A stretch of 64,000 nt of DNA, from the IMG/VR virus record IMGVR_UViG_3300020048_000012. One strand, written 5' to 3'. This stretch comes from a virus. The number at the start of each line of letters is the position of its first letter. Position 1 is the first letter of the stretch. The notes beneath the pieces are model-generated. The model worked only from the letters and a program-made list of their open reading frames with translations. It did not search any database and was not told the origin of the DNA. Positions 17,073 through 33,651 of the stretch are shown piece after piece. Both the position numbers and the translations under genes were made by a program.

Positions 17073-17147
17073 TGGTGCTCCCATAAGGACTTGCGCCCTA
17101 CTCTGAGGCTTACAAAACCCCTGCATCGCTATCTATGCTTTGAGAGC
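17073..17147 (-). tRNA. tRNA-Thr(UGU), atypical loops
   Basis: ggggt-ttTGTaa-gcctc. Confidence 0.75.
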
Positions 17148-17154
17148 AGATCCA

Positions 17155-17240
17155 ACTGTGAACTTATGCTAAGCCGTTGGCGCTTTCGCAGCCAGATCAA
17201 GGTTCTGGAAGACCTAAATTGGTGGGATCAGTTTCACAGT
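17155..17240 (-). ncRNA. Stem-closed ncRNA H
   Basis: actgtgaa/ttcacagt closure with two internal hairpins (one GAAA loop). Confidence 0.5.
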
Positions 17241-17274
17241 CGTCCCGGCGTGTAGGATATACTACAACTATATC

Positions 17275-17345
17275 TGGATGCGGGTGAAGGGCACGATCCT
17301 TCTGGGCCGAGCTTATGAGACTGGCCGATCACCTGAATACCCGCA
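17275..17345 (-). tRNA. Degenerate CAU tRNA lacking a D stem (initiator-like acceptor)
   Basis: TGCGGGT/ACCCGCA acceptor, ctCATaa loop, CCA. Confidence 0.55.
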
Positions 17346-17401
17346 ATATTTTGTTTATTGATTAATTATACAACAATTTCTATTTAATAGAAAATCTAAT
17401 T

Positions 17402-17476
17402 TGGCTCCCCAGGAAAGGTTCGAACTTCCGACCAAGTGATTAACAGTCACCTACTCTACCACTGAGCTACTAGGGA
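17402..17476 (-). tRNA. tRNA-Asn(GUU)
   Basis: gtga-ctGTTaa-tcac. Confidence 0.93.
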
Positions 17477-17486
17477 ATAATAAAAA

Positions 17487-17574
17487 TGTAGTGTAACTGG
17501 AGTCTTAATTACCAGTATAGCGCAGGCGCACGCGGGAGACTAATCATCTCAGGCAAGTGATAACGCCTACTACA
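17487..17574 (-). ncRNA. Multi-hairpin ncRNA I
   Basis: tgtagt/actaca closure with three to four hairpins. Confidence 0.45.
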
Positions 17575-17578
17575 AAAT

Positions 17579-17664
17579 TGGCTCCACGGGTAGGGATCGA
17601 ACCTACGATTGTCAAAAGACGACTGGTTAACAGCCAGCTGCATTACCTCTCTGCGCACCGTGGA
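17579..17664 (-). tRNA. tRNA-Asn(GUU) with long variable arm
   Basis: ctgg-ctGTTaa-ccag; gtc-tttt-gac variable hairpin. Confidence 0.85.
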
Positions 17665-17752
17665 ATAAAATTCATTGAATCGATTCGGAATTTAACCGCT
17701 CTGTTTCCTCTTTCGAGTGAAGGCTCGTTCGACACCTCCCAGATCACTTATT

Positions 17753-17826
17753 TGGTTGGTCTGTTACGAATTGAACGTAAATCGGTCGCTTATAAGGCAA
17801 CTGCTCTCCCATTGAGCTACAGTCCA
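17753..17826 (-). tRNA. tRNA-Ile(UAU)
   Basis: gttgc-ctTATaa-gcgac. Confidence 0.88.
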
Positions 17827-17834
17827 ATAAATTT

Positions 17835-17909
17835 TGGTACCTGGTGTTGGTTACGCTCCAACTACAAACGCCTTATCAAGACGCTACCTCGCTATTCGGT
17901 CTACCAGGC
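17835..17909 (-). tRNA. tRNA-Ile(GAU)
   Basis: gcgtc-ttGATaa-ggcgt. Confidence 0.82.
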
Positions 17910-18178
17910 ATGCGGACCCAGATTTATGTCATTAGGCCCATTAGACAGAGGTCTCTTGAGTTTAGATAGTCAAGCTATCAAAGCGAGTTGGAGACACTGC
18001 TTATACATTTGAGTTCCCGTTTGTCATTGTGGCACGGGTCGCCTTGACGTCCTCAAAAAGGTTCTCAGAAACTGTGTTAACAGTCTTGTCTCGTAAGAAG
18101 GAGATCTTGCGTGTTCGTGTGAAAAAGCCCAATCAGTTGGCACTACTTGCGACTCGACTTCTACGTCTATCTGAAATT

Positions 18179-18255
18179 TGGAGCGTCCACCCGGATTCGA
18201 ACCGGGACCATCAGCTTGGAAGGCTGTCATGCTAGCCGTTAAACACCATGAACGC
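18179..18255 (-). tRNA. tRNA-Gly(UCC)
   Basis: cagc-ctTCCaa-gctg. Confidence 0.93.
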
Positions 18256-18261
18256 AAAACT

Positions 18262-18387
18262 TGGTGTGTAGAGTAGGTCTCGAAGCCTACAAATAGTACC
18301 ATACTCTGAGTCGTTAAACTCATATCAGAATCGAACTGAATGACCAGGCTCATCACCCGGCGCGTTTACCAATTACGCCATCTACAC
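18262..18387 (-). ncRNA. 126-nt tRNA-like RNA with a second T-loop in a giant variable region
   Basis: 7-bp acceptor plus ACCA, D arm, ccggg-TGATGAG-cctgg, ~50-nt insert. Confidence 0.7.
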
Positions 18388-18395
18388 ATAAAAAC

Positions 18396-18470
18396 TGGTA
18401 TCCCGTATCGGTTATGCTCCGATCTCAGTAGGGTGAAGGCCTACTTGCCACACTAGCTGCATCACGGGAT
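18396..18470 (-). tRNA. tRNA-Glu(UUC) with C33
   Basis: gtagg-ccTTCac-cctac. Confidence 0.75.
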
Positions 18471-18479
18471 ATAAAAACT

Positions 18480-18554
18480 TGGCGATCTTAGCCGGTAACG
18501 ATCCGGCTCTTCCTCTTAGACAGAGAGGTGTGCGTCCATGAACACTTTAAGACC
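18480..18554 (-). tRNA. tRNA-Asp(GUC)
   Basis: cctct-ctGTCta-agagg; G73. Confidence 0.88.
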
Positions 18555-18912
18555 TAAAATTCAAGTCACAACCATTGGGACTCATACCCATTCTATAAAG
18601 TGTACCAGTGTGACCAGCGTACACGAAGTTTACTCATGGGCATTTACTTTCCCATTAATTCTTAAATTAGGTCGGGAATACACGGCGTTAGAAATAAAGT
18701 GGCTCTCGGTTTCGAATCAAAAGCGTATGAATATAACTTCTGTCCCTAGGCAGTCTTTCCGCCGACAATGTGTTTCAAACCCCTACTGGACCGACTTACT
18801 CTCGCATCGTCAATGATCTGTGGCTTAGTACGTCCAGCATTATTGAAGACCTCCCAGTCTCGGAAGGCTCGGCACCCATCTACTCATCCTACTAAACATT
18901 GTCTTAGTAACT

Positions 18913-18989
18913 TGGCTCCCGTGGCACTCATCGCATAGTGCGTTATCTAACCATTGGCTAAGGTCCGCGCAGACCCGCTAAACACGGAA
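18913..18989 (-). tRNA. Highly degenerate tRNA-like element with intact acceptor and CCA
   Basis: ttccgtg/cacggga-G-CCA; non-canonical loops. Confidence 0.5.
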
Positions 18990-18996
18990 ATAAAAT

Positions 18997-19082
18997 TGGT
19001 GGAGTTTGTCACAGGCTTTCACTGTGATTTGCTCAGCTAAGTTATAGCTGCTTTCGTCCTATATGTTACGTATTCAAACCCC
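18997..19082 (-). tRNA. Degenerate tRNA-like element (AAC at the anticodon position)
   Basis: ggggttt/aaactcc-A-CCA; cagct-atAACtt-agctg. Confidence 0.5.
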
Positions 19083-19148
19083 ATAAATTGGTGGACCCCT
19101 GTTTCTATGCCTGGGCCCATTGATAGAGTATCTACTATCAGCATGTTT

Positions 19149-19224
19149 TGGTGGAGGTGAGGAGGATCGAACTCCTATCTAAGCATTGCAAGTGCTCCGT
19201 GTAACCCATTATCACTACACCCCC
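19149..19224 (-). tRNA. tRNA-Ala(UGC)
   Basis: agca-ctTGCaa-tgct; G3-U70. Confidence 0.92.
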
Positions 19225-19230
19225 AAAAAC

Positions 19231-19302
19231 TGGTGGACCTATGGGGAATCGAACCCCAAGCATGGCATTGCAAGTGCCTTTCCCGTCCCATACGGTAAGC
19301 CC
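19231..19302 (-). tRNA. tRNA-Ala(UGC), second copy
   Basis: ggca-ctTGCaa-tgcc; G3-U70. Confidence 0.85.
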
Positions 19303-19418
19303 AAAATAAAAGTAACGGTATATGGATTCTTTCCCGTCAGTTGCAGAATTGAACTTTCGAACAATCGCCACATTCCAAGTACTCCGTGAAAGGGAGGATG
19401 TATCTGCATCTTATAAAC

Positions 19419-19494
19419 TGGTCAGTGATGTTGGTCCCGCCCCAACGGCCTCTCGCTTCCAAAACGAGTACTCTACTAGCTGAGCTAATCACTG
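19419..19494 (-). tRNA. tRNA-Pro(UGG)
   Basis: ctcgt-ttTGGaa-gcgag; C1-G72. Confidence 0.85.
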
Positions 19495-19599
19495 TAAATT
19501 CTTGCTGTGGTAGCTAATACCTCAAGCACAAGCAGTGCATCCCAGTTACGCTGGTTCGTTTATGCAAGGGCGAGTTTGCTTACGCCTTAGAGTGCTCAT

Positions 19600-19675
19600 T
19601 GGTCTCCATACGAGGATTTGAACCTCGGCTTCTTGGTCCCAAACCAAGTGCGCTACCAGGCTACGCAATACGGAG
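19600..19675 (-). tRNA. tRNA-Pro(UGG)
   Basis: cttgg-ttTGGga-ccaag. Confidence 0.93.
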
Positions 19676-19681
19676 AAAATC

Positions 19682-19767
19682 TGGTGGATGCGGTAGGATT
19701 CGAACCTACAAGTCCGTGAGGAGCCGGATTTACAGTCCGGGGAGCCAACCAATTGCTCAACACATCC
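19682..19767 (-). tRNA. tRNA-Tyr(GUA)
   Basis: ccgga-ctGTAaa-tccgg; long variable arm. Confidence 0.93.
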
Positions 19768-19774
19768 AAAATTA

Positions 19775-19886
19775 ATTATACATAAACATACTCGCATCTG
19801 CCTTTGGAGCCGCGTGTTCCTCCCCTTGTTTTACCACAGGATCCTGTGGAGGAGTGTGCACATTTACACCAATGTTTATGTATAAT
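19775..19886 (-). ncRNA. Stem-closed ncRNA J
   Basis: Perfect 15-bp attatacataaacat/atgtttatgtataat. Confidence 0.65.
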
Positions 19887-19994
19887 CATATTGAAACATA
19901 TTCCAGGGGGATTCGCACTTGCCTTTTCTTCAGTAAACACTGACCCTGCATCTTAAATCAATAAGAGGAACCTAACAAAATATGTTTCAATATG
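19887..19994 (-). ncRNA. Stem-closed ncRNA K
   Basis: Perfect 16-bp catattgaaacatatt/aatatgtttcaatatg. Confidence 0.65.
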
Positions 19995-20465
19995 ATCCCG
20001 AGGGTATCTCGGTAAATTGAGTAGCATTCCAGCGACAGTCCGATTACCAGTCGGATGCCTGCATCTCTACACAATCATTATCATATTCAAATGCTCCGGG
20101 AATACTGAAGGGCATTCTTAGCATCTCTCTTTCCACAGTATAAGACGAATGGAAGATTGCTTAACTCACCCCATGTTCAAACCAAAACACTTGAATATGA
20201 TTCCTGAAGCAGTGAACCAGCACACGTGTCCGGCGCTTACTTCAGGATATCATGAAAAATCATCAAATTTTGAAAGAACAAATCGGGATATCTTACGATA
20301 CATTACATGCAACAAGGATCGACCAAGCCGCAAACTTTCGTTCACCTCATCAAACATCATTTCTGTGTTCAACTACCTTAGTGCGCCACTTAGTGGACTA
20401 CACTCAGAACCCGATTAAAATTTTAAAGAATCTTTCTTGAAGTCCCGATCAACTTCTAAGATTTT

Positions 20466-20495
20466 ATTATACCACATTTACTAATTAAAGTAAAC
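20466..20495 (-). promoter_or_regulatory. Early promoter feeding the ncRNA-rich part of the array
   Basis: GTTTAC-N18-TATAAT with TGTGG extension. Confidence 0.8.
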
Positions 20496-20763
20496 AAGTA
20501 TTTTAAAAATTGTGATACGCTTGGTGTGAAACAAGTCGTCTTTATGTGCGTTCTTTTTTGGCTATACCTGCGAGTTTCACGCAGCGTCAATAAACACATA
20601 AATTTCACAATTTTTAAAGAACTTCCAAGCAAACTCGATGGTTTGTTTGTTTATGGATTTATTATACCACGAAGTCTATTTAATGTACACCGTTTTATGC
20701 ATTATTTTTAGTGCTTCAGGTGACTTCAAGAGACTTACGTTGGTATACTTACACTTGCCCGAT

Positions 20764-20814
20764 GAACAATGACGTACGTACACTTGATGCACATAAGTTG
20801 TTGATTTATATAGG
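20764..20814 (-). repeat. IHF-site/palindrome repeat, copy 2
   Basis: Same motif. Confidence 0.8.
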
Positions 20815-20820
20815 CCTAAA

Positions 20821-20895
20821 TGGCATCCCGACTAGGACTCGAACCTAGACATGCAGTTTTGGAGACTGCAGTGCTGCCAATTACACTATCGAGAT
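20821..20895 (-). tRNA. tRNA-Trp(CCA)
   Basis: tgcagt-ctCCAaa-actgca. Confidence 0.92.
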
Positions 20896-20907
20896 ATGAA
20901 AATACAA

Positions 20908-20983
20908 AGGGGTGACCTATGGGGAATGCTCCCATTCTATCGCTTTCACAGAGCGAGGTGCGAAACTTTTACACTAAGGTCAC
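20908..20983 (-). tRNA. tRNA-His(GUG) lacking G-1 and CCA, embedded in an extended stem (20901-20994)
   Basis: tcgct-ctGTGaa-agcga; ends C73-CCT. Confidence 0.75.
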
Positions 20984-21001
20984 ACCTTTGTATTCTAAAC
21001 T

Positions 21002-21078
21002 TGGTGCGTCTGGAGGGATTTGAACCCCCAACAGTTCGGGTAGAAGCCGAGTACTCTATCCAGTTGAGTTACAGACGC
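21002..21078 (-). tRNA. tRNA-Arg(UCU)
   Basis: tcgg-ctTCTac-ccga. Confidence 0.93.
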
Positions 21079-21085
21079 AAATTCT

Positions 21086-21162
21086 TGGTGCCCGAGGTCA
21101 GATTCGAACCGACACGATTTTGATTTTGAATCAAACGCCTCTACCAATTGGGCTACACGGGC
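21086..21162 (-). tRNA. tRNA-Leu(CAA), short variable loop
   Basis: tttga-ttCAAaa-tcaaa. Confidence 0.9.
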
Positions 21163-21171
21163 AAATATTCT

Positions 21172-21248
21172 TGGTGCGAATGGCGGGACTCGAACCCGCA
21201 GATTATGGGTTTTAAGCCCACTGCCTATACCAATTCGGCTACATTCGC
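21172..21248 (-). tRNA. tRNA-Leu(UAA), short variable loop
   Basis: tggg-ctTAAaa-ccca. Confidence 0.9.
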
Positions 21249-21262
21249 ATACTAACTAATTC

Positions 21263-21350
21263 TGGCGGAGCATGTAGGAATCGAACCTACTCACCACTTA
21301 CGCAGTGACAGATTAGCAATCTGTTGCCTTAACCGGTCGGCCAATGCTCC
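21263..21350 (-). tRNA. tRNA-Ser(GCU)
   Basis: acaga-ttGCTaa-tctgt; long arm; G73. Confidence 0.93.
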
Positions 21351-21358
21351 TTAAAATT

Positions 21359-21433
21359 TGGTGCTTCGTGACAGATTCGAACTGCCGACCCTCGCCGTGT
21401 AAAAGCGTAGCTCTACCACTGAGCTAACGAAGC
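21359..21433 (-). tRNA. tRNA-Val(UAC)
   Basis: cgct-ttTACac-ggcg. Confidence 0.92.
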
Positions 21434-21434
21434 A

Positions 21435-21668
21435 TTAACCATTTCGTCTACACTTATAGACATATTCTAATCCATCTGGCAATACGCCATCATTGATACT
21501 ATCAACACCAGATTTTCCAACTTGATTTGGATCTTCGCATACTGTTGTAACAAATGACATACCCAATTTACGCATTCCTTCTGACACTTCTAACGCTCTA
21601 AGTAGAGTCGCTGTGTCTACAGCGTGTGACCAGTTTGTGACTGGATCAGTATAATACACTTTAAACAT
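21435..21668 (-). CDS. Small hypothetical protein within the tRNA array
   Basis: 77-aa ORF exactly filling the gap between two tRNAs. Confidence 0.7.
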   Translation of the reverse strand: MFKVYYTDPVTNWSHAVDTATLLRALEVSEGMRKLGMSFVTTVCEDPNQVGKSGVDSINDGVLPDGLEYVYKCRRNG

Positions 21669-21683
21669 AATTCACTTTATTTA

Positions 21684-21760
21684 TGGTGGGGATGGAGAGA
21701 CTCGAACTCTCAGCTTACGGCTTCTAAGACCGCTGCGTCTACCAATTGCGCCACATCCCC
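21684..21760 (-). tRNA. tRNA-Leu(UAG), short variable loop
   Basis: gcggt-ctTAGaa-gccgt. Confidence 0.9.
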
Positions 21761-21769
21761 GAAATATAT

Positions 21770-21843
21770 TGGTCAGTGATGGAGGTACCGCCCCTCCGCT
21801 TCAAGTTTCCAAAACTCGTAGACTACTTTTATCTCAATCACTG
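21770..21843 (-). tRNA. tRNA-Pro(UGG), third copy, atypical loops
   Basis: cgagt-ttTGGaa-acttg. Confidence 0.75.
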
Positions 21844-21850
21844 ATTAATC

Positions 21851-21924
21851 TGGTGCCCCTTCAAGGAATTGAACCTCATTCTGATGCTTACAAGGCAACT
21901 GTAATACCAATATACTAAAAGGGC
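21851..21924 (-). tRNA. tRNA-Thr(UGU)
   Basis: tgc-ctTGTaa-gca. Confidence 0.85.
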
Positions 21925-21928
21925 TTCT

Positions 21929-21999
21929 AATATTTGAGCATACTAACTGGATCCATCTCGCACTAGGTGCATCTCGGGCGATCAATATGCTCAAATATT
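21929..21999 (-). ncRNA. Stem-closed ncRNA L
   Basis: Perfect 14-bp aatatttgagcata/tatgctcaaatatt. Confidence 0.6.
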
Positions 22000-22040
22000 G
22001 GAGCTGCTACGGAGAATCGAACTCCGCTTGTCGGGATGAT
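21999..22040 (-). pseudogene. 3' half of an interrupted tRNA-Glu-like gene
   Basis: TCAT-CCCGA-CAAG-CGGAG-TTCGATT-CTCCG-TAGCAGC-T-CCA. Confidence 0.75.
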
Positions 22041-22041
22041 C

Positions 22042-22116
22042 TGGAGTCGCATACGGGAATCGAACCCGTCTCTACAGCATGAAAGGCTGTTGATCTAACC
22101 GATAATCTAATGCGAC
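22042..22116 (-). tRNA. tRNA-Glu(UUC)
   Basis: acagc-ctTTCat-gctgt. Confidence 0.9.
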
Positions 22117-22781
22117 ATTGTTCTACCTTGTTTAAATCCTTCTGGTATTATATCACTATCTTTTATTCTGGTGTTCACTTTACCATCAGTTATCCAAACT
22201 TGCTTATATTTTCTTTTATATTCTTTAACTTTTTTACCAAGTAATGAATCAGAAATTTTCTTCTTCATCTCATCTGTCATTGTGTTCTTAGATTTTTGAT
22301 GTCTGCCGGCACAAATTCTACTACAAAATTTTGTTTCGGTTTTTATCTTTCTCTCTGTTTCAAACTCAATTTTACAACAATCACAGAGATGTTTATATTT
22401 TGGTTTATATCCATCGTATAGTTCAAAGTATTTCTTTGTTCCATATTTTCGAGTAACATATTCAAATGCGTATTGTAAATCATCTTTACGTAACACATTT
22501 ACAATATAACCAAAAGATTCAGCAACCTTTGTTTTCTTATCAACAAATTCTTGTTTCTCGTATCCCTTTGTTTCTATTATCGTTTTTCCATCAGATAATA
22601 GAAAATCAGGATAATAAGTTATTCCATCTTTTTCTAACTTTCCAGGAAATCTTTCGAACTCAATGTGGTGATCTAAACTATAGATCACCCAACACAATTC
22701 ATAAGTGCTACCGCAATATATTCCATTATAGTATCCACTTTTTGATCTTCCAGAACCTTCTCTATATCCACCTATTGTCAT
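22107..22781 (-). CDS. PD-(D/E)XK-type endonuclease with Zn-binding and NUMOD-like C-terminus (putative homing endonuclease)
   Basis: YYPDF...IIETKG; CDCC..FCSRIC; WITDG; TATAAATA at 22800-22807 and GGAGG RBS. Confidence 0.75.
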   Translation of the reverse strand: MTIGGYREGSGRSKSGYYNGIYCGSTYELCWVIYSLDHHIEFERFPGKLEKDGITYYPDFLLSDGKTIIETKGYEKQEFVDKKTKVAESFGYIVNVLRKDDLQYAFEYVTRKYGTKKYFELYDGYKPKYKHLCDCCKIEFETERKIKTETKFCSRICAGRHQKSKNTMTDEMKKKISDSLLGKKVKEYKRKYKQVWITDGKVNTRIKDSDIIPEGFKQGRTMSH

Positions 22782-22807
22782 ATAACACCTCCATTTTATT
22801 ATTTATA

Positions 22808-22842
22808 TAAAATGAGTGTCCTAACCGATAGACGATAGCAGC
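22808..22842 (-). pseudogene. 5' half of the interrupted tRNA
   Basis: GCTGCTA-TC-GTCTATCGGTTAGGAC; acceptor strand is 7/7 complementary to TAGCAGC at ~22003-22009. Confidence 0.75.
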
Positions 22843-22927
22843 AAAAATTTGCGAGCATCTCACGATGTGTCGACTTCGTATCTTATGCACCGTATTCGAC
22901 CGATGACTCAGAAAAATACGCTATAAC

Positions 22928-23209
22928 TCAGCGACGTTGTACGTATACGTCGATCGTGCGTGCATCTTCAAGCTTGAAGCTTTTGACACACTGATTCTTG
23001 TATTTCGCGTAAGCAGGATTTCCTTTGCCTAAACGAGCTTTTAAACAAACTCTAAACAATACCGGAGTTTGCTTGTGCCACTTTGCGGTCAAGACTGCAC
23101 TTTTGTTGACAGAACGAATTGACTTGCGAACCGCTTCAATTTTGTCCATGTCAGACGTACTCATCGGGTCAGCGGTGAATACGTAAGCGTCTGTTCTTGC
23201 CTTTTTCAT
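22928..23209 (-). CDS. Hypothetical phage protein
   Basis: 93-aa ORF after an early promoter and RBS. Confidence 0.7.
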   Translation of the reverse strand: MKKARTDAYVFTADPMSTSDMDKIEAVRKSIRSVNKSAVLTAKWHKQTPVLFRVCLKARLGKGNPAYAKYKNQCVKSFKLEDARTIDVYVQRR

Positions 23210-23441
23210 AATCTATCCTTGTTTCGATAGATCAATTATACCACAAAGTCTAATTATTGTACACCGTTTTCTTCTTTTTTCTTGCCGTATGTCTTAACGA
23301 TGCTTTCGCCGCTAATCATCATATTCTTAAAATGATTGCGCTGTTCATCGCTTGTCAAAGTCGCCATCAAGCGCTTTGTCTGTTTCGAAAGTTTAAAATG
23401 TCCATTTGTCTTCATAATATCTCCATTAAAAAATATATACA

Positions 23442-23520
23442 TGGTGGGAGGTCTAGGAATCGAACCTAGTTCTTCTGCTCTTCAGGCAGACGCTGGAATC
23501 ACCAGACTAGCTCACCTCCC
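23442..23520 (-). tRNA. tRNA-Phe(GAA)
   Basis: tctgc-ctGAAga-gcaga. Confidence 0.92.
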
Positions 23521-23697
23521 GAAATTCACTAAATCTTCATCAATCCATCAAAATACGCTTTCCACGATTTAGCATATTGGTCTACACTAAACTGCAGTGT
23601 CGTATACATCTGCGTATAAAACCATCCGTAATGTTTTACAGCATCTTCAAGCGTTTCACTTTTCAATGCGCGTTTGAGATGATATGACGCTGGAATT

Positions 23698-24246
23698 TTA
23701 TACATTCTTTCTTTCCTCTGCAATCTTCTGGATAACATGTTCAAGAAGAATTGGTTTAAAATCGGTATGCTCTACTGAAACACAGTGGTATCTAGTATCT
23801 ATACGAGATACGCCATGCTTATCGATGAGCATCACTCGATCACTATGAAGATGTCCATGTACATTTGCAGTAAATTTTCTGAAACTAGCTTCATGGATTG
23901 GAATGTGAGTCAAAAGCAAATTGCTCAACGAATAAGATCCATGAACATCTTCAAAAAATGGAGCGTATTCGTCCATTCTAAGATTATCATGATTGCCCTT
24001 AATGAGAACTTTCTTACCATTGAGTCTATTCATAATACCAATAGACCTACGATTCATGACAACATCGCCAAGATGATAAACTTTATCTCCTGGTTTGACT
24101 GTTTCATTCCAAGCCTTTACCAATGCTTCATCCATTTCATCTGGATTAGTCCATGGACGCAATTTAGTGACACCATCAGATTGTGTAAATCTGCAAACGC
24201 CCATATGACCAAAATGTGTATCCGATACGATGTAAACTGCAGGCAT
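23698..24246 (-). CDS. Calcineurin-like metallophosphoesterase
   Basis: SDTHFGH, LGD, KGNHD, THIP, HGHLH. Confidence 0.9.
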   Translation of the reverse strand: MPAVYIVSDTHFGHMGVCRFTQSDGVTKLRPWTNPDEMDEALVKAWNETVKPGDKVYHLGDVVMNRRSIGIMNRLNGKKVLIKGNHDNLRMDEYAPFFEDVHGSYSLSNLLLTHIPIHEASFRKFTANVHGHLHSDRVMLIDKHGVSRIDTRYHCVSVEHTDFKPILLEHVIQKIAEERKNV

Positions 24247-24374
24247 TTTAAAATTTCCTTATAATTCGTTTTATTTAATAAAATTATTATACCACGAAGT
24301 CTATTTAATGTACACCGTTTTGTGCAGTATTATTTCAAAGTGATAGTGTGTATATATCACTCAAGTGTTATAAG

Positions 24375-24466
24375 TGGCGGAGAGCAGAGGAGTCGAACCC
24401 CATCCCATTTCTGAGAACCTGGTTTTCAAGGCCAGTCGCAGGACCATCCCCGCTGCATTACTCTCC
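24375..24466 (-). tRNA. tRNA-Ser(UGA)
   Basis: ctTGAaa loop; long arm; G73. Confidence 0.9.
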
Positions 24467-24473
24467 GAATTTT

Positions 24474-24551
24474 TGGCAGGGGTAATTGGATTCGAACCAA
24501 TGATGACGATTTCAAAGACCGTTGCCTTAGACCAAACTAGGCGATACCCCA
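24474..24551 (-). tRNA. tRNA-Gln(UUG)
   Basis: acggt-ctTTGaa-atcgt. Confidence 0.92.
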
Positions 24552-24718
24552 ACAATAGTAAAACATTCATTAAACATTTTACTATAGCCCCTGAGAAGCA
24601 GTGGACCGGCACAAAGGCCGGCGCTTACTTCTCAGGTGACCATTAATCAGACTTTCGTCTGATTTTTAGAATTCACTAAATTTTTAAAGAGCGTTGGAAG
24701 TTTCCTTCCTTAGAGTGT

Positions 24719-24748
24719 ATTATAACACCCTGACGATTTATTGTACAC
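24719..24748 (-). promoter_or_regulatory. Early promoter at the head of the tRNA array
   Basis: GTGTAC-N18-TATAAT. Confidence 0.8.
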
Positions 24749-24757
24749 CGTTAAACA

Positions 24758-24787
24758 CAAAAGCCCCAATCTTTCGAGAGGGGCTTT
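24758..24787 (-). terminator. Intrinsic terminator upstream of the tRNA array
   Basis: AAAGCCCC-TCTCGAAAGAT-TGGGGCTTTT. Confidence 0.8.
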
Positions 24788-24818
24788 GGCGTGATCCTAC
24801 TGATCTTACACTTAGCCC

Positions 24819-24923
24819 CTAATTATCCCAACCCTCGATCGAATGCTGAGGACGCGCATTAAATTTACTGGTCGTATAGACCGGCAAAGTTGTGCAGTTG
24901 GATAAGAGTGTATGTATTAACAT
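24819..24923 (-). CDS. Putative 34-aa leader peptide (MLIHTLLSNC...GWDN)
   Basis: ATG 7 nt after TATAAATA (24931-24938); stop overlaps a sequence complementary to the terminator 5' arm. Confidence 0.5.
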   Translation of the reverse strand: MLIHTLLSNCTTLPVYTTSKFNARPQHSIEGWDN

Positions 24924-24930
24924 TGTATTT

Positions 24931-24938
24931 TATTTATA
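24931..24938 (-). promoter_or_regulatory. T4-type late promoter TATAAATA
   Basis: Exact gp55 consensus; others at 22800 (-), 1139 (+), 25153 (+). Confidence 0.7.
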
Positions 24939-25219
24939 CGTCGAGAACGGCTCCTGCGCCACTCCAGACAACTTTATTTTCGTCTTCGTACAATCTAAAT
25001 TCATAGTCTGCAATGTCAAATCCAAACGCTTCACATGTCGCTTCAACTGCATTGACGCCGGGTACGATGTCTTTGTACCAACCGACTTCAACACCTTTTT
25101 TGAAAACTTTTACTTTTGTCTTTTCCATTACTTGATCTTTCATATCGCGGTGTATAAATATAGTGTCTATCGCGATATCTCACTATCCATAGACTCTAAC
25201 ACTAACAAGGAGTGCCAGC

Positions 25220-26038
25220 ATGAATATTTATACAACCGTTCCATTTACATATTGCATACGATGGACAGCCCATAACAAATGGTACTATGGCGTAAAGTAT
25301 TCAGATGGATGCTCTCCAAAAGATTTATGGACTACATATTTCACGAGTTCTAAATACGTAAAAGAATTTAGAACCGCGTACGGAGAACCAGATTTAATAG
25401 AAATTAGAAAAATCTTTGACTCAAAAACTGCTGCGCGCAAATGGGAAAATAAATTTTTATTAAAGACAAAAGCCGGCAAGAATCCAAATTCCTTAAACAT
25501 GGCAAACGCAGGATCGTTCGGTATCAAGATATTTAAACCAAAAAATCTTCCAGGGAATTCTGGACCCACTGCAAAAATAAATCAATTAGAAGCGCGCACC
25601 ATCGAATTGCTCAATATCAAAAAATCTTATATTAAGCAATCTAACAAAGGTCGACGGTGGGTTAATTTCAAATTCGTGTTTTTCATTTTCTTCTTAGATG
25701 AACTAGAAAGATCTGAGTTTTTGGCACACAATCCAGATTGGTCGTTCGGAAGAAATAGTCAGGAAATGAAATCTTCTATATCTAAAAAACTGACAAATGT
25801 AAGTAAACCAGTTAGATCTAAAGAACACTGTGAAAAAATTAGTAAAGCTACTAGAGGTAGTAAAAAGCCAAACTCTGGGCCAAAAAATTACATTCACTAT
25901 AATAATGGCATCGATGAAATTTTGATTCATCGGACTGACGAAATTCCGAATGGGTTTACTATTGGAAGAATTCCAGGCAAATATGGAAATGCAAAATTTG
26001 GCAGAGATATGAATATATTACGCGATATGATCAAATGA
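25220..26038 (+). CDS. Free-standing GIY-YIG-type homing endonuclease
   Basis: FTYCIRW....KWYYGVKY...YFTSSKYV; YNNG.DEI repeat; TATAAATA at 25153-25160. Confidence 0.75.
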   Translation: MNIYTTVPFTYCIRWTAHNKWYYGVKYSDGCSPKDLWTTYFTSSKYVKEFRTAYGEPDLIEIRKIFDSKTAARKWENKFLLKTKAGKNPNSLNMANAGSFGIKIFKPKNLPGNSGPTAKINQLEARTIELLNIKKSYIKQSNKGRRWVNFKFVFFIFFLDELERSEFLAHNPDWSFGRNSQEMKSSISKKLTNVSKPVRSKEHCEKISKATRGSKKPNSGPKNYIHYNNGIDEILIHRTDEIPNGFTIGRIPGKYGNAKFGRDMNILRDMIK

Positions 26039-27319
26039 ATCGGCTACATCCTGATCATATCTAAATCCAGTGAAGACTGGGAGAAACAATGACCATTCAC
26101 CTTGTTTATTCTGTATTTTTGCATTATACTTAATATTAGCAATCTTACCAATTGGAGTTGAATTCATCATGTCTTGCCGAGTTGCGTCACTTAACCCAGT
26201 TCCAACATTGACATTTACGATGCCATCAGCTGATTGACATATTAGAGCCCCGAGCATACCTTTATATTTACCAGTACCCATTTGTATAGCAGTCACTAAT
26301 AGTGACGCTTCTTCTTCACCTTTGAACTTCACTTGCTTCTTAGAGCGTTTATTCTCCCAGATCGCACTAAGATCTTTAAGAATGATACCCTCAAAACCTG
26401 CGCTCAAATATCGATTGAACAATTCTTTGGCTTCTTCAATAGTATTGACATACGCCGTTTCAACGAAATTAATCTTTGGATTAGTCGGTAAGTCGACACT
26501 AGATAATTCATCCCAACGATCGCTATAGCGCGCGTTAAATTTTCCAGCTAAGAATGCATCATACGGAATGATATCCCAGATTTGAGCTCGCACCATCTTC
26601 GCCAATTCTGGCGTGATGGTTCCTTTATTAGCCTTATTGAGAATGCCATTACCGGTCTGACGATCAGCGATAGTGCCATCTTCATTTGCCACGAGTAATT
26701 CACCGTCATACACGACATTACGACCAAGCGACAGCCTAATAAATTCATCTTCAAGATTTCCGAGCAATTGGATCTCTTTGCCATTACGAGATCTAAAAGT
26801 TACAGCACCATTCAAGACGATAGCATTAAAGCGCATGCCATCTTCTTTTTTCTGTACGATCGCAGGAAACTTAATCTTATCAACGAGTTTCTGATCAAAC
26901 GCAGAACACAGCATACATGGATAATCATGGATTAGTTCTGGCCAAACTTTGTTGAACGTTGACTCAGATGCGCCGCATTTAAGATCTTTGCCGATAATGC
27001 GTTCAATCACTTGAGCATTTTCGACTGAACAATTTTGCAAGATCCAACCAAGATGATTGATTGCTCGATTTCCAGTGATTTCTCGACTCGACAATTTTGA
27101 AAGTTCATCCATTGCTTCTGACAACGAAATGTCGGGAAAACATTTGCCTGCAGTGTAATCAGGAATCTTTCGCACATAAAATTGCGTGAATGGATCGTAC
27201 GCAAGAAATGCAACACGTTTCAAGAGTTCATTGCTCTTGTGTTTATTGAGCAAATCGATCTTAAAATTGCGTGAGTTATTCTCACTGAGTTCATTCAAAA
27301 TTTTATATACGCTAGTCAT
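26018..27319 (-). CDS. 30: ATP-dependent DNA ligase (gp30)
   Basis: KEDGMR, YDGEL, EGIILK, KFK, LFLP.F..FR.D. Confidence 0.95.
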   Translation of the reverse strand: MTSVYKILNELSENNSRNFKIDLLNKHKSNELLKRVAFLAYDPFTQFYVRKIPDYTAGKCFPDISLSEAMDELSKLSSREITGNRAINHLGWILQNCSVENAQVIERIIGKDLKCGASESTFNKVWPELIHDYPCMLCSAFDQKLVDKIKFPAIVQKKEDGMRFNAIVLNGAVTFRSRNGKEIQLLGNLEDEFIRLSLGRNVVYDGELLVANEDGTIADRQTGNGILNKANKGTITPELAKMVRAQIWDIIPYDAFLAGKFNARYSDRWDELSSVDLPTNPKINFVETAYVNTIEEAKELFNRYLSAGFEGIILKDLSAIWENKRSKKQVKFKGEEEASLLVTAIQMGTGKYKGMLGALICQSADGIVNVNVGTGLSDATRQDMMNSTPIGKIANIKYNAKIQNKQGEWSLFLPVFTGFRYDQDVADSFDHIA

Positions 27320-27559
27320 AATATTCCTTGTTCAATAAGAGTATTATACCACAAAGTCTAATTGTTGTACACCGTTTATTGAATTTTCATTATCTTTTCT
27401 AAAACGTCATGAGACTCTTTTAGATTAGATTGTTCCATTAATAATCTGTCTAAAGAATTTTCTGCTCGATTGAGAAGCCATTCGACATAGGTCATTTCTT
27501 CGTCAGTGAGGTGTCCCACCCACTGTGAGAACTCCTCATTAGTCTTGCAAAGAATGACC

Positions 27560-28027
27560 TTAAGATTTTTTTCGTGATGTTGAGCCTGCATCCTTTTTTC
27601 CTTTCACTTCTCTGAGTGCTTCGGGTAAAATGCCATTATCGACTAGTAAATCGAGCGTAATGTTTTTATATAGTTTCGTCAATTCTTGATCTTTTACAGC
27701 AAGCAATACTTTTGCTTCATCGGGGTGAATGTTTTCAAGCAATTGGACGAAAAGTGCTTCACGGCGTGGTTGAGCCAATTCTTTTTGTGGAGTGAAGATA
27801 TAAAATCTTCGAAACTCTTGTACAAAATTGCCAGGAGACATTCCTAATGGAGCTGCATCTTTCTTAAATGGTGGTTCACCTTCGGGCAATGCAAATTTGA
27901 TAGACGGATCGAATGCATATTGCATCAAAATACGAAGAGCGCTATGCCCTTTATATTGAACAATAAGGTTAGGATCTTCGTTGATCTCATTCAAGATTTC
28001 AGTGATAAATTTTCTATTCGCGACCAT
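27560..28027 (-). CDS. Hypothetical protein of a kind often seen near the ligase in T4-like phages
   Basis: AFDPSIKFALPEGEPP...RREALFVQLLE.IHP.EA. Confidence 0.8.
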   Translation of the reverse strand: MVANRKFITEILNEINEDPNLIVQYKGHSALRILMQYAFDPSIKFALPEGEPPFKKDAAPLGMSPGNFVQEFRRFYIFTPQKELAQPRREALFVQLLENIHPDEAKVLLAVKDQELTKLYKNITLDLLVDNGILPEALREVKGKKDAGSTSRKKS

Positions 28028-28065
28028 AATGTTTCTTTCTTTAAACTATTTAATATGTATATGAT

Positions 28066-28959
28066 TTAAAAGTCTTCCAGAGAATTCAACAACTCGCGGC
28101 ATCGATGTTTAATCAAATAGTTCATAATCGCAGTCTTATCTTTCTTCACAGTCATATTTTGATATGTCGTAATGATTTCTTGTTTTAGATCGACTGGAAT
28201 ATGTTTGAAGTCGATAAGCTTTTCGTTACGATGCCAGTTACGGCGTTCTTCATCAGTCCTACATGCAGCAAAGCCAAGCTCAACAAATTCGGCAAGGCGC
28301 TTAGCAGACACCGGTTTTTGACGAACACCTTCTTGAAGGAAGATATTGTCCGGGCTTAAGATAGAAGGAATGCCATCGTCACCAGCTTTAACAATATGTT
28401 GAATGTGACCATTTGTCATATAGTCTCTTTCGCGAGGGATAAGTTTCTTAGTCTTTGTTGACCATTGTTTGACATTATCAAAGCGATGCAGTTGCTTAAA
28501 GTCGTGGTCAGATGAAATGATAAGAACATCTTGTGGTTCTTCGATTAATCCAATTGATCTAAACTCGTTGTCTTGAGTATATTCAGCGAGCACAGCAATG
28601 ATGTCATCGGCTTCAGCTTTATCAACACCAATGACTTTGTATGGAAAGTGCTCGGCTAAATCAAGTTTCAATTGATTGATAGTTTCAAAGATTAGATGAA
28701 ATGGAAGACCAGATTCTTCGCGAGCTTTCTTACGACCTGCTTTGTAATATTGAAAATAGTCACGACGCCAGTAATTGCGAGCGTCACATGTAATCACAAT
28801 ATTGCCATATTGCTTGCCATATTTTTTCTTATAAGATTGAAGCATGCTAAGAACGATGTGACGAATCAGATCGACAATCTTTTCATCGCCACCTCGTAGT
28901 TCACGCTGGAATGAAAGAATCGCATTTAGCGATGTTTGGGAATAGTCAACGAGTATAAT
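28066..28959 (-). CDS. rnh: RNase H / 5'-3' exonuclease, apparent AUU start
   Basis: ILVD.SQ, YWRRDYF.YYKA.R, EADDII, ISSD.DFKQL, GDDGIP; GGAG-7nt-ATT. Confidence 0.93.
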   Translation of the reverse strand: MILVDYSQTSLNAILSFQRELRGGDEKIVDLIRHIVLSMLQSYKKKYGKQYGNIVITCDARNYWRRDYFQYYKAGRKKAREESGLPFHLIFETINQLKLDLAEHFPYKVIGVDKAEADDIIAVLAEYTQDNEFRSIGLIEEPQDVLIISSDHDFKQLHRFDNVKQWSTKTKKLIPRERDYMTNGHIQHIVKAGDDGIPSILSPDNIFLQEGVRQKPVSAKRLAEFVELGFAACRTDEERRNWHRNEKLIDFKHIPVDLKQEIITTYQNMTVKKDKTAIMNYLIKHRCRELLNSLEDF

Positions 28960-28960
28960 T

Positions 28961-29362
28961 TTATTTCTCCTGTGTGAACAAACGGGCGATATCATAATCA
29001 AAGCGATCATGCATTCGCTGCAGGACTTCTTCAGGAACGCTATGAACATTCCCAAAAGAGTTTTGACAAACAATGACAGTTGGAACAATGTCGAAGTTTT
29101 TAGCGATATCGAAATATGGTTTCAATTCTTTTTTAGTCGTAAATGTATTTGATACAACGACATTCATACCCATCGATAGATATTTTTTGGTTTCTTCGCG
29201 ACACCATGTATGAGCTTCGTTTAATTTACTAAGATTGAAGTTGTAATCTTGTCCCCAAAACATATCAGTTTCAAGATGAACTGTGATTTGAGGTTTAGCA
29301 AGACTTTTTGCCAGAGTTGATTTGCCTGAACCTGGAAGGCCACGAATAATAATTAATTTCAT
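28961..29362 (-). CDS. P-loop kinase (AAA_33 / Pnk-like)
   Basis: IIRGLPGSGKST, VVVSNTF, HSVPEEV..RM. Confidence 0.85.
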   Translation of the reverse strand: MKLIIIRGLPGSGKSTLAKSLAKPQITVHLETDMFWGQDYNFNLSKLNEAHTWCREETKKYLSMGMNVVVSNTFTTKKELKPYFDIAKNFDIVPTVIVCQNSFGNVHSVPEEVLQRMHDRFDYDIARLFTQEK

Positions 29363-29407
29363 ATGTTTATTATACCATAAGTGCGAATTAATGTACACCT
29401 AAAACGC

Positions 29408-29438
29408 AAAAAGACTTGAACGAAGTCAAGTCTTTTTT
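29408..29438. terminator. Bidirectional intrinsic terminator
   Basis: AAAAAGACTTGA/TCAAGTCTTTTT. Confidence 0.8.
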
Positions 29439-29452
29439 CAATTGGATATTTG

Positions 29453-29713
29453 TCAATCTTTGTTATCGATGATAGTGATGTATAGAGACTCGAGTTCAGC
29501 CATCTCGGCTTGCTCTGTCTGGAAGTTCTGCTTGTAGTAGATACGAGCCATCTTCTTTAGATCTTTCTTCGACAATTCAAATTCATCGGCAATCGATTTG
29601 ACGGCCTCATTGATAAAGTCTCGTTCACCTGCAATGCGAGTCATAGAATCGCTAATTTCGATAATTGCATCTTTAATCTTTTTACGATCTGCTGGGCTGC
29701 TAATTTGTGCCAT
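29453..29713 (-). CDS. dsbA: dsDNA-binding protein DsbA
   Basis: KIKDAI.EISDSMTRI..ERDFI...KMARIYYKQNF; next to rnh as in T4. Confidence 0.85.
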   Translation of the reverse strand: MAQISSPADRKKIKDAIIEISDSMTRIAGERDFINEAVKSIADEFELSKKDLKKMARIYYKQNFQTEQAEMAELESLYITIIDNKD

Positions 29714-29714
29714 A

Positions 29715-29951
29715 TTACGCTTTCAAAGTTGTATAATTAAAAGAACGCCATTCATTTTTATCAAGGTCGAATGCCTTAATATTATCACTTTCATCTTGTG
29801 GCGTATCACTTGTTTTAGGATGAAAGTCGATTGGAATAAGATTTCCATTTCGAGTGCAGCGCATCGTGCGATCAGTTCCATCTTTCTTTGCGAAAGTCAC
29901 TGTCACTTCACCTGCACGCATTGCTTCTACTAATTCAATTTTAGTCATCAT
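29715..29951 (-). CDS. SH3/WYL-like beta-barrel protein
   Basis: VTVTF.KKDGT.RTMRCT...FDLDK.EWRSF. Confidence 0.75.
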   Translation of the reverse strand: MMTKIELVEAMRAGEVTVTFAKKDGTDRTMRCTRNGNLIPIDFHPKTSDTPQDESDNIKAFDLDKNEWRSFNYTTLKA

Positions 29952-30706
29952 ATATCCTTATTCAAATTTACGAATTACATCGACTTTGATAATTTCCTGA
30001 CCGCGAGCATATGATTTTGCAGTCGATTCAGATGGAAATACTTTACTAGTCGCATAACCCAATTCACGATTAAATTCATCTAACACCATGAATCCAACTT
30101 TAAGTCCAATAGTTTTGCTAATGCTCATTGCATCTTCTGTTGTGACTTTAGCTCTAAGTAGTGCTGGCAATTGACGATCTCCTTGCATTGTATTTCCAGT
30201 TAAAAATTAATTATATCAAAGATACGATTATTTTGCAATCAAATTTTGTAAGACGAAGTGATTGAATTGAATTGATGCTTCCATGACCAAACATCTTGCA
30301 CATAGCACTTAAAGTCATGCATGCTAAGATCGACTTCACTATCTATAGTCCATTCCATCATTGCAATTGCTTCATTGTAAGAATCGACAAAACTGACTGG
30401 TCGCAATACGTTGACTACATGATTAATATCAGCGCCCTTTTTAGCGCTTTTCAAGAGTTTTGACAACTCTTTTACCATTGTTTCTCGATATGCGACCATA
30501 GCCTCGTCGTATTCGATAACATGTTTTTCGCGATTTGTTTTCAATTGCGTAAGAAGATCCGATACTGCTACTTTAATATTTTCCATCATTTATCCTTTAG
30601 GTTCATACAATCGCACGTGCGACCTTGATTACATTTTTGATTGCACGCACTCTTTGGTGGAGGCGTGAACAATCGAATAAGAAACAGTCTTAGTCGATTA
30701 AGCATT

Positions 30707-31510
30707 TTATTTGCCAATCATAAGACCTGTCATTGTGCTTGGAATGATAATAGTTTGCACTTTACCATTCTTAACACCTTCAGAGATATTCAAGGCTGCT
30801 TGGGCATTCATGTAAGCAATCGACTGAGTTGAATTAGAACTCAAAGCTGCCATGCGTTCAGATTCTTTCTTAGCAATTGCAACTTCTGTTTCTTTAATTC
30901 GTAGATCATTTTGTGATTTGACATATGCAGTCGCTGAAGCCATGATTTCTGCATTTGGAAGAATATTACGAATTTGCACAACCGTCAACGTAATAGCAGT
31001 GTCGAGTTTTTCTACCTTCAATTGTTCATTGACAGCATTTCGAATGCTGACCTCAATGTTGGCGCGATTATCAGAAACTTCTAGTGACTTATATTCACGA
31101 ATTGTTTTATATGCAGCGTTATTTACTAATGTAGTAACGTAATGATACATCAGGTAAGTATCACCTTCCTTTTCGTCATATGCGTGGAAACTCTTAGACT
31201 TTGTCGTATACAGTTCGGACACACTTGTTGGATTAATGCCATACACAACCGTAATGTCAAAGTCTGCAAGAGCGGAGTTGTCAGATGTCATTGGAGTTTT
31301 ATTCTCCAGCGTCAAGGAAATATCCTTTGTTGGGAATGTCAACACATCACCGAGCATCGTTTGATTCCAAGAGCCGGGCATCAGTTCCGCTCCCTGGACT
31401 TCTTTGGAAGTATTGACTCGAACACCGACTTCGCCGGTGGTAATACGAGTACACCCAGTAGAGATTGCGATAGCTGCGACAAGGAGAGAAAGTTTAAAAA
31501 TAGATTTCAT
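30707..31510 (-). CDS. SPFH/band-7 lipoprotein
   Basis: Lipobox-like ISTGC, I.TGEVGVRV, C-terminal coiled coil. Confidence 0.8.
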   Translation of the reverse strand: MKSIFKLSLLVAAIAISTGCTRITTGEVGVRVNTSKEVQGAELMPGSWNQTMLGDVLTFPTKDISLTLENKTPMTSDNSALADFDITVVYGINPTSVSELYTTKSKSFHAYDEKEGDTYLMYHYVTTLVNNAAYKTIREYKSLEVSDNRANIEVSIRNAVNEQLKVEKLDTAITLTVVQIRNILPNAEIMASATAYVKSQNDLRIKETEVAIAKKESERMAALSSNSTQSIAYMNAQAALNISEGVKNGKVQTIIIPSTMTGLMIGK

Positions 31511-33651
31511 GATTTAAAATAAAGTTACAAAAACAAACAAAATAACGACAGTAATAATAGCAACGGCTCCAGCATTAAGAATCATCTTAATTGCATGCCA
31601 TTTTTCACCCGAACTCAAGTACTGCCATGACGCAATACCAACAATAAGAATTGACCAAAGAATAAAGAATACAAAAATCATTTTCGCCATTAGTTATCCT
31701 CCGTCTCCCATTCAGTTGCACAAAATGCGAGACGTAATTGCAATTGATTGTCTTCACCGAAATAAGCAGTGGCGTCAAATCCACCAGATCTATTGTAATA
31801 GCTACCTTCACCACCAATTGACACGCCTTCACATGCACCATTTAATAGATCACGTGTCATTTCTTTCATTTGATCAATGTTAGGAAAATAGGATTCTCCA
31901 AATGGAGTCGACCAATGCCAACCGAGCGCCAACATGACTTTTTCGACTTTTTTGAAGTCAAAATTGTCAATAGTCGTTTCAATCTTTTCTTTGTATTTCA
32001 TATATTACCAAGTCCTGTGTTTTTCTGCAATTATTTCATATCCATTGTGTTCAACTATACCCCATTTGACATCGTCTGGTATTTCAATGACTTGAAGTTT
32101 TGAGAAGTCGCCATTCGCTTTAGCTCCAAGCTCTTCAACAGCTTGAACTAAGGCGCTATCATCTCGCGAAAACAAGTATTCATTCAATTCTATATTAATA
32201 CGATCGGCTTGATTCAGATGATCGTATGGCGCCGTGTAATAATAGTAAAACCCATTTTCTTTATGAAAGAAGATTGACATCTGTTTGAGTTCACATATAC
32301 GAAGAACCGCCTCATGTGATAACCCATAACCACCATAGCGTCGATTCACAACGACTTTTGTCATCAGTATTTCCTCAGGCCAAGAAGAAGGTCAACGCTG
32401 GTGCCGTAAAATGGCAACTTAACTGGTTTACATTCACGATCAATTGCGCATACTTGCACGTAAAGATCTCGATCGTCTTGCACTGTGTACACATCAACTT
32501 TACTCCCCTTAGGAATCATATTACCATTTGACGAAACGTACATGCTCAGAGTACCAGAGCAAAAATCTAAAGTAGTGATCATATAATTCCTTGTTTTGAT
32601 AAAATCATTATACCATAAAGTCTAATTATTGTACACCATTTTTTGAACTAATGATAGAATAAATGAACCAAATAATCAAAACAGTGATCACTGGAGCAAA
32701 GAACATGAATGCGATGAGTGCGCTTACCGTCTTGCTTCTAACCATAATAGCGTATATGTATGATTGAACGCATGCGTATAAGAGATATAATGTAATAGTC
32801 ATTTGTTATTATGTTTTCTAATTAGAACGCCAATTTCTTTAGCTGCGATCTTTGCCTCCATGTGCAATACTCGCTTATTGACATTGAATATATCAATGCC
32901 ATTTTCGTCCATTCGTAAGATAACTTGCTTTGCTTTATCTAAAGGAAGCGCAAGAAGTTCTGCGATTTGTTCAATCATATTTGATATTAAATTCTTCTTT
33001 GAGAAATGCCACCATTTCATCACGATCATACCAATCTCCCATATATTCGACTTCTCCATCGAAGCGATATACTGTGACAGTGATAAGACCATCATTGTTT
33101 TTAACTGACAATGCAGTGTAAGGTCCAAACATATTAATGCACTTCAGTTTTCGTGGTAAAGGTGTGTAAAACATATGTCAATGAACCTTAGTATCCATGT
33201 TAACGACAAATTCATCAGTCGCTTTTTCAATAAAAGCAACTAGTTCTTCTATCAATTCTGGCGACGCAGAACTATATTGCATGGAATTTAGCGCCGCGCG
33301 AAGTTGAGTAATTACAACCAAATCAATATACATCGAGTACGCCTAAAGAATTGGCATTGACTTCTTACCAAGTTCGACGATCTTCTCCAGATCATTTGGA
33401 TCTAGATCAGTTTCATCGAACCAAACGAACGTGCCTGGGAGAACACCAACTGGACCTTTCCACATCGTCATGCTTCCATCGGCATAGACTTTAAAAAGTC
33501 CGATCGACGTATCGACAATGACGCTGCGCATAGGTTTAACTGAATAGAGTTTCATGGTTTCATCACATACATAAAGTAGTAGGCAAATGGAGCTCCAATG
33601 AGAACAGCCATAACGAGAGCTTGCGAGAGATCTTTAGAAAAACTTTTCATA

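Follow-up and report, generated by a model that had tools for sequence, protein, structure and literature searches.

In a 64,000-nucleotide stretch of viral DNA (IMG/VR record IMGVR_UViG_3300020048_000012), referred to below as the window, a short module on the minus strand is read here, with moderate confidence, as a ribosome-dependent transcription attenuator whose leader open reading frame (ORF) contains all amino acids and which lies upstream of the promoter-plus-boxA leader of a tRNA array. Judged from sequence comparison, the module would probably give extra transcription into the tRNA genes when ribosomes decode slowly. The arrangement exceeds chance, because it has been kept in 13 lineages of related phages and because the pairing at its core beats both shuffled and swapped controls.

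The module is preceded by the gene for a 69-amino-acid protein (25143..24934; this and all features below are on the minus strand unless otherwise stated), which lies outside it. The TAA stop codon of this gene is overlapped by the box TATAAATA (24938..24931), whose conserved core is RCGTATAWATAA and which is the candidate promoter of the leader transcript. At 24923, 7 nt past the box, an ATG without a Shine-Dalgarno sequence opens a leader ORF of 34 codons plus TAG (24923..24819). The stop codon (24821..24819) overlaps the G segment AGGGGCT (24820..24814), the 5' strand of the predicted antiterminator and the exact complement of AGCCCCT (24785..24779). The latter sequence is common to two alternative structures: it can pair with the G segment or, as part of the 5' arm of an intrinsic terminator (24787..24753), with the 3' arm of that terminator. 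A spacer hairpin (GTGT-AA-GATC / AGTAG / GATC-ACGC; 24811..24789) is located inside the antiterminator helix. The terminator hairpin begins 26 nt beyond the G segment and has 12-nt arms, a GAAA loop and a TTTTGTGTTT tail (AAAGCCCCTCTC-GAAA-GATTGGGGCTTT followed by TGTGTTT; -14.8 kcal/mol). An initial annotation of this DNA had described these features, including the overlap of the stop codon with AGGGGCT and the exact complementarity of the latter to the terminator 5' arm, and its description was found to be correct in every detail. It did not include two elements that separate the terminator from the leading tRNA gene, tRNA-Gln(UUG) (24551..24474): a promoter (24747..24719) and a boxA-like leader.

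Relatives of the window, all of them uncultured phage contigs, were found by a search with the 69-aa protein and with a DNA pattern that combines the promoter and boxA. The module set comprises 24 distinct DNA sequences and that of L029, i.e., 25 sequences in 13 lineages. All 13 lineages have a TATA(A/T)ATA box, an ORF of 31-47 codons, a G-rich segment, a spacer hairpin region and a strong terminator; 3' of the terminator, the lineages carry between one and three promoters, usually followed by a hairpin, then a boxA-like element and finally tRNA-Gln, with which the array opens in every lineage. Thus, the same architecture does recur in related phages, as the initial annotation had proposed to check, with both the ORF and the antiterminator conserved. 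The gene upstream of the module varies by lineage (the 69-aa gene, a DNA ligase gene or another gene), which indicates that the module is tied to the head of the array rather than to that neighbour. In the window, a 272-aa ORF on the plus strand (25220..26038) separates the ligase gene from the 69-aa gene; L001 has no such ORF at this place, the two genes there being directly adjacent. The ORF may be an inserted mobile nuclease gene. The module is carried by no cultured phage among 50,697 phage records: megablast, blastn and tblastn searches with the region and one leader peptide gave nothing significant against them. A search of Rfam with 24560..24940 returned no matching family.

Antiterminator and terminator are predicted to be mutually exclusive at the 5' arm, and the folding of the related sequences bears out what the initial annotation had supposed on this point. 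When nascent RNA was folded to the end of the 5' arm with 25 nt of upstream context, a helix between the G segment and the arm formed in all 24 of 24 sequences, and with the whole 5' transcript it was the minimum-energy structure in 21 of 24; in these folds, the helix encloses the small spacer hairpin. In 11 of 12 lineages, the arm was stabilised more strongly than when the upstream part was dinucleotide-shuffled (summed z -8.5), and cognate arms gave -13.1 kcal/mol compared with -11.4 +/- 0.5 for permuted arms (p = 0.0003). Counted column by column, 84-85% of cells were paired vs 79% in shuffles (0/500). Both strands co-vary between lineages. The pair AGGGGCT and AGCCCCT of the window (G segment and 5' arm, respectively) is replaced by CAGGGCT and AGCCCTG in L032, by TAGGGCTT and AAGCCCTA in L036, by TGGGGTT and AACCCCG in L006, and by AGGGTCT and AGGCCCT, with one G-U pair, in L007. 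The covariation score is modest, at 0.084-0.096 about twice that of shuffled sequences (0.041-0.046). Sliding the partner by +1 column gives a score nearly equal to that of the proposed register, because runs of G leave the register ambiguous; realignment with a covariance model (R1) was tried as a cure, and the ambiguity stayed.

The reading frame of the G segment relative to the stop codon differs between lineages, so that coding offers no explanation for its conservation and the segment is to be regarded as an RNA-level element. The stop codon lies 0-9 nt from the G segment in 12 of 13 lineages, a position that agrees with the earlier proposal that a ribosome at the stop would mask AGGGGCT. 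The exception is L029, in which the ORF extends 27 nt beyond the G segment and ends inside the spacer. The antiterminator is weak (5-6 bp) in L009, L041 and L042. Terminator hairpins with T tracts are found in 24 of 24 sequences, 12-31 nt past the stop codon, with energies of -14.6 to -24.2 kcal/mol. The terminator fold is favoured over the alternative by 0.8-13.5 kcal/mol at equilibrium; hence, the alternative helix could act only by forming first. This region of the window folds better than shuffled sequence (z = -3.1).

The leader ORF evolves, as far as its substitutions indicate, as a translated gene whose peptide sequence is under purifying selection. The ATG and the open frame are kept in all 13 lineages, and each of the 16 pairs compared gave a dN/dS of 0.1-0.5. 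The description of the ORF as effectively leaderless applies to four lineages, those of the window, L001, L006 and L009, in which the ATG lies 5-7 nt past the box and lacks a Shine-Dalgarno sequence; it does not extend to most relatives, which have a leader of 19-29 nt with a Shine-Dalgarno sequence. The peptides share the pattern Y-D-[FL]-N-x-Q...R-[PTS]-x-[TS]-x-E-(G)-W, of which the C-terminal motif R-[PTS]-x-[TS]-x-E-(G)-W, located 2-6 codons ahead of the stop, is the best-conserved part. A Pfam search with ten leader peptides (E <= 10) gave zero matches, including to leader- and arrest-peptide families, and a profile search of 1.84 billion representative proteins returned only six clusters. 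Codon adaptation of the leader is low (0.586 vs 0.729 +/- 0.067 for this phage). An enrichment for codons that the phage tRNAs can read was considered and rejected, since 28 of 34 codons are readable (82%), which is equal to the value for the phage's own genes.

In the window, the 34 residues of the leader peptide include 20 of 20 amino acids, and the array of 33 tRNAs likewise covers all 20 amino acids together. The full set is present in 20 of 25 peptides of the DNA-module set and in one of three further peptides from the profile search (21 of 28). With the window's own amino-acid frequencies, the chance of a full set at leader lengths is 0.0005-0.002, and only 0.36% of 34-residue segments of real proteins contain all 20 amino acids. 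Moreover, the rare residues occupy different positions in different lineages, which argues that the property is not simply inherited. Given only the residues common to a leader and that of its nearest relative, the chance of completing the set is 0.015 for the window, 0.008 for L033, 0.035 for L029 and 0.007 for P0005.

The composition of the leader may also track the tRNA block behind it, for which the evidence of the sequences is suggestive. The leader of the lineage formed by L017, L036 and L028 has no His, Lys or Val, and its first tRNA block comprises, according to ARAGORN, the 17 amino-acid identities present in the leader; a cluster of tRNA-Lys(UUU), tRNA-His and tRNA-Val is located 5.7 kb off, beyond approx. 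10 protein genes and behind a promoter of its own. The match between leader and block in this lineage is weakened as an exact one by a degenerate tRNA-Lys(CUU), two stem pairs of which are mismatched; this gene was missed by ARAGORN and is placed by Rfam in the first block. Counter-examples are L050, whose leader lacks Cys while the array contains tRNA-Cys, and G001, whose leader contains Trp while tRNA-Trp was not found in the array. The leader ORF contains no runs of regulatory codons. Trp, and in the window also Asp, is confined to the last three to five leader codons, so that by the time of a stall at these positions the ribosome would have reached the G segment and masked part of it.

The T4 late promoter has the sequence TATAAATA and is read by gp55. 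The box ahead of the leader is likewise an exact 8-mer TATAAATA with no -35 element, and a gp55 homologue is encoded in two related genomes, G001 and G002 (38-39% identity, E ~1e-18). Unlike the T4 promoter, however, the motif is not over-represented: it occurs 5 times in the window vs 4.9 expected, 15 times in the complete 166.8-kb relative G001 vs 13 in a reversed control, and 7 times in G002 vs 6; the longer core GTATAWATA showed no over-representation either. A T4-type late promoter recurring upstream of many genes was thus not found in the window, G001 or G002, and these counts do not support the designation as a late promoter in the initial annotation, a label that is here considered plausible. 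Further differences from the T4 promoter are that four lineages carry TATATATA and that a conserved CG just upstream of the box falls outside the T4 consensus. The core RCGTATAWATAA is conserved whatever gene lies upstream, which speaks for a signal. Promoters further upstream may also supply leader transcripts.

The tRNA array itself appears to have its own promoter and, putatively, an antitermination leader of the kind found in rRNA operons. The promoter, TGTACA-N17-TATAAT with TGn (extended -10), is phage-specific and sigma-70-like and starts 5 nt past the terminator tail in the window. In every lineage, the first tRNA is separated from the terminator by one to three copies, placed 5-10 nt past the terminator tail. 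The corresponding 29-nt motif, TGTACAWYAATTAGAYYTYRTGGTATAAT, occurs at 27 sites vs 0.59 expected, all of them on the minus strand, in window positions 1082..60276 (further sites include 27371..27343, 24314..24286 and 23263..23235); by its distribution, it would be the phage's standard promoter for this region. The conservation of the motif well past both hexamers suggests recognition by a phage factor in addition to sigma-70. Because a promoter of its own stands ahead of the tRNAs, the array is independent of read-through, and the switch supplies an additional input instead of acting as the sole gate. This limits the proposal of the initial annotation that tRNA supply is coupled to translation stress: the conserved switch and the all-20 leader favour such a coupling, but the promoter precludes it from acting as the only control.

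In bacterial rrn operons, boxA has the consensus UGCUCUUUA and is preceded by boxB (PMC6614797). In the window, the promoter is followed by a boxB-like hairpin (GGAAG-GAAA-CTTCC; 24709..24696) and by the boxA-like element CGCTCTTTAAAAATTTA (24693..24677). Its core, CGCUCUUUA, matches 8 of 9 positions of the consensus UGCUCUUUA, and over the longer stretch GCTCTTTAAnAATTTA it is 15/16 identical to the rrnB leader of E. coli. The E. coli rrnB leader likewise has a hairpin and then TGCTCTTTAACAATTTA. The extended motif TCTTTAAMAWTT is present three times in the window vs 0.17 expected, every copy being preceded by a promoter of the tRNA region, and the promoter-plus-boxA element is kept in 27 related loci. 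Like the rrn leader (boxB-boxA-boxC), which loads NusB/NusE, the phage element consists of a promoter, a hairpin and GCTCTTTAA(A/C)AATTTA ahead of untranslated RNA genes. The phage hairpin differs in sequence between lineages, some of which lack it; rrn boxB is likewise dispensable. Unlike the rrn leader, the phage element heads a phage tRNA array, its boxA varies at position 3 among relatives (GCT, GTT, GAT, TTT), and its Nus site is a predicted one. A helix between leader and trailer, as in rrn operons, was also sought; the best match of 13 nt, between 24683..24671 and 13603..13591, lies inside a 242-aa ORF (13845..13117) and is probably due to chance. This match involves the bases just past boxA, and its partner site is located 210 nt beyond the last tRNA.

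Several further elements were observed in and around the array. Two more promoter-plus-boxA-like units are found on the minus strand within the tRNA region (window 20400..20700), with TCTTTAAAAATT at 20620..20609 and TCTTTAAAATTT at 20429..20418, which suggests that antitermination factors could be re-loaded at internal promoters. Two conserved hairpins, NNNAGAC-GAAA-GTCTNNN and a long one, lie between boxA and tRNA-Gln (24664..24587); their pairing is kept, with compensatory changes, in L001, L029 and L045, and they would constitute an unnamed structured RNA that heads the array. In L027, L030, L037, L041, L043, L044, L048 and L050, the same promoter-plus-boxA leader precedes a different conserved structured RNA (starting GTCCTCTCTAAGTCTACGGTAAATACGGAG...), which is located (e.g., L030:8135-8400) directly 3' of a gene of approx. 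70 aa beginning MARKSKD. Directly after tRNA-Gln, an 88-nt tRNA-like gene (24379..24466, minus strand) was missed by ARAGORN and scored 34.9 bits, below threshold, with the Rfam tRNA-Sec model; by eye, it has a UGA anticodon loop and a long extra arm, and it is probably tRNA-Ser(UGA). The L001 copy of this gene is interrupted past the anticodon loop by inserted DNA. In G001, ARAGORN also predicts a tmRNA gene (L058:2066-2458) with the tag AANESVFALAA, approx. 47 kb from the tRNA array.

Taken as an attenuator, the module would operate through a race between the ribosome and RNA polymerase on the leader. Polymerase would start at or upstream of the TATAAATA box and transcribe the 34-codon ORF. 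A ribosome close behind that arrives at the stop codon would cover AGGGGCT; the terminator arms would then pair, and the transcript would end at 24753. Where the ribosome is missing, delayed or halted at any hungry codon, the G segment would instead stay exposed and, according to the folding, would pair with the 5' arm before the 3' arm exists, so that polymerase would read on. The read-through polymerase would then cross boxA, probably load Nus factors and reach the tRNA genes. Since the leader carries every amino acid, a shortage of any charged tRNA could be sensed; such a shortage, or generally slowed translation, would lead to extra tRNA transcription on top of that from the array promoter. 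The switch would in this way supply a demand-driven input in addition to a constitutive promoter, and it may matter most if that promoter is shut off late in infection.

An ordinary small-protein gene, whose peptide has its own function, followed by an insulating terminator that does no more than close the upstream unit and shield the tRNA promoter from incoming polymerases, with the pairing serving mRNA stability or the ORF's own translation, would account for part of these observations and is considered rather unlikely. The purifying selection on the peptide is what a small-protein gene would show, and an insulator fits both a tRNA array that always has its own promoter directly 3' of the terminator and the greater stability of the terminator fold at equilibrium. 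However, this explanation does not account for an alternative helix in competition for the terminator 5' arm and in covariation with it. Nor does it explain why, in 12 of 13 lineages, the stop codon is placed on that helix, or why a peptide of 31-35 residues keeps all 20 amino acids by way of shifting positions. Also against it, the peptide has no Pfam match and is represented by only six clusters among the 1.84 billion representative proteins.

Selection on the peptide could also reflect the nascent chain itself. The conserved chain (..RPxxSIEGW / ..RTFSPEW..) could be an arrest peptide of the TnaC or SpeFL type which, stalled at or near the stop by a ligand or by the state of the ribosome, would keep the G segment covered and set the frequency of termination. 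It is in the C-terminal motif, 2-6 codons before the stop, that conservation is highest, and dN/dS is below 1; a possible resemblance to TnaC was not confirmed by the Pfam search of ten peptides. An arrest peptide is nonetheless improbable, as no Pfam leader- or arrest-peptide family matched at E <= 10 and as the all-20 composition and its lineage-specific gaps would be left unexplained. Finally, the terminated leader transcript of approx. 170 nt could itself be the product, a small or dual-function RNA whose ORF and helix merely shape its folding. The region does fold better than shuffled sequence, and small RNAs derived from attenuators are known, such as rnTrpL (PMC6614838). Nevertheless, the ORF and its start codon are kept in all lineages and the Shine-Dalgarno sequence in most, the substitutions are codon-like, and no Rfam family matches the region; a functional leader RNA is thus judged very improbable. 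Ribosome-dependent attenuation is the preferred reading of the module.

Leader-peptide attenuators are known from enterobacterial amino-acid operons, including trp, his, thr, ilv and pheA. One example of such a leader is pheL (PMC3082878). The phage module shares with them an upstream short ORF, a terminator 5' arm with an alternative upstream partner, a proposed choice between the two by ribosome position, and a terminator that is more stable than the antiterminator at equilibrium. Unlike the enterobacterial leaders, it has no run of regulatory codons, each amino acid occurring once or a few times. In addition, no 1:2 'protector' helix was found, so that the untranslated state is predicted to read through. 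The genes downstream encode tRNAs and not biosynthetic enzymes, a promoter is placed in between, and the setting is a phage. The logic is thus that of leader-peptide attenuation, from which the module differs in its full-alphabet leader, read-through default, tRNA output, phage setting and coupling to boxA.

The closest functional parallel is the upstream ORF (uORF) of whiB7/wblC in actinobacteria, a general sensor of translation stress. Stalling on the uORF is held to cause antitermination, whiB7/wblC is activated by starvation for many amino acids and by loss of tRNAs or synthetases, and the composition of the uORF, which is enriched in alanine, sets what is sensed (PMC10274678). Unlike the phage leader, the uORF lacks a full set of 20 amino acids. 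Its output is a transcription factor, whereas the output in the phage would be tRNAs, which would close a direct feedback loop.

We also put forward, more tentatively and somewhat short of calling it probable, that the module acts as a homeostat of the tRNA pool in phages with large arrays. The leader would hold every amino acid represented in the tRNA block that follows it, slowed decoding of even a single one would switch the antiterminator and boost transcription of the entire block through boxA-modified polymerase, and leader composition would co-evolve with the block. To our knowledge, almost nothing is known about how phages control their own tRNA genes, and a full-text literature search found no paper on such control. 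The boxA leader suggests that host rRNA antitermination machinery has been borrowed across 11 kb of untranslated genes. If the reading is true, a natural peptide of 31-35 residues with the full set of 20 amino acids would provide a sensor for decoding stress that is both compact and portable. The textbook attenuation of amino-acid synthesis would then have been re-used to gauge overall translation capacity, and this measure would be fed back onto tRNA supply during infection.
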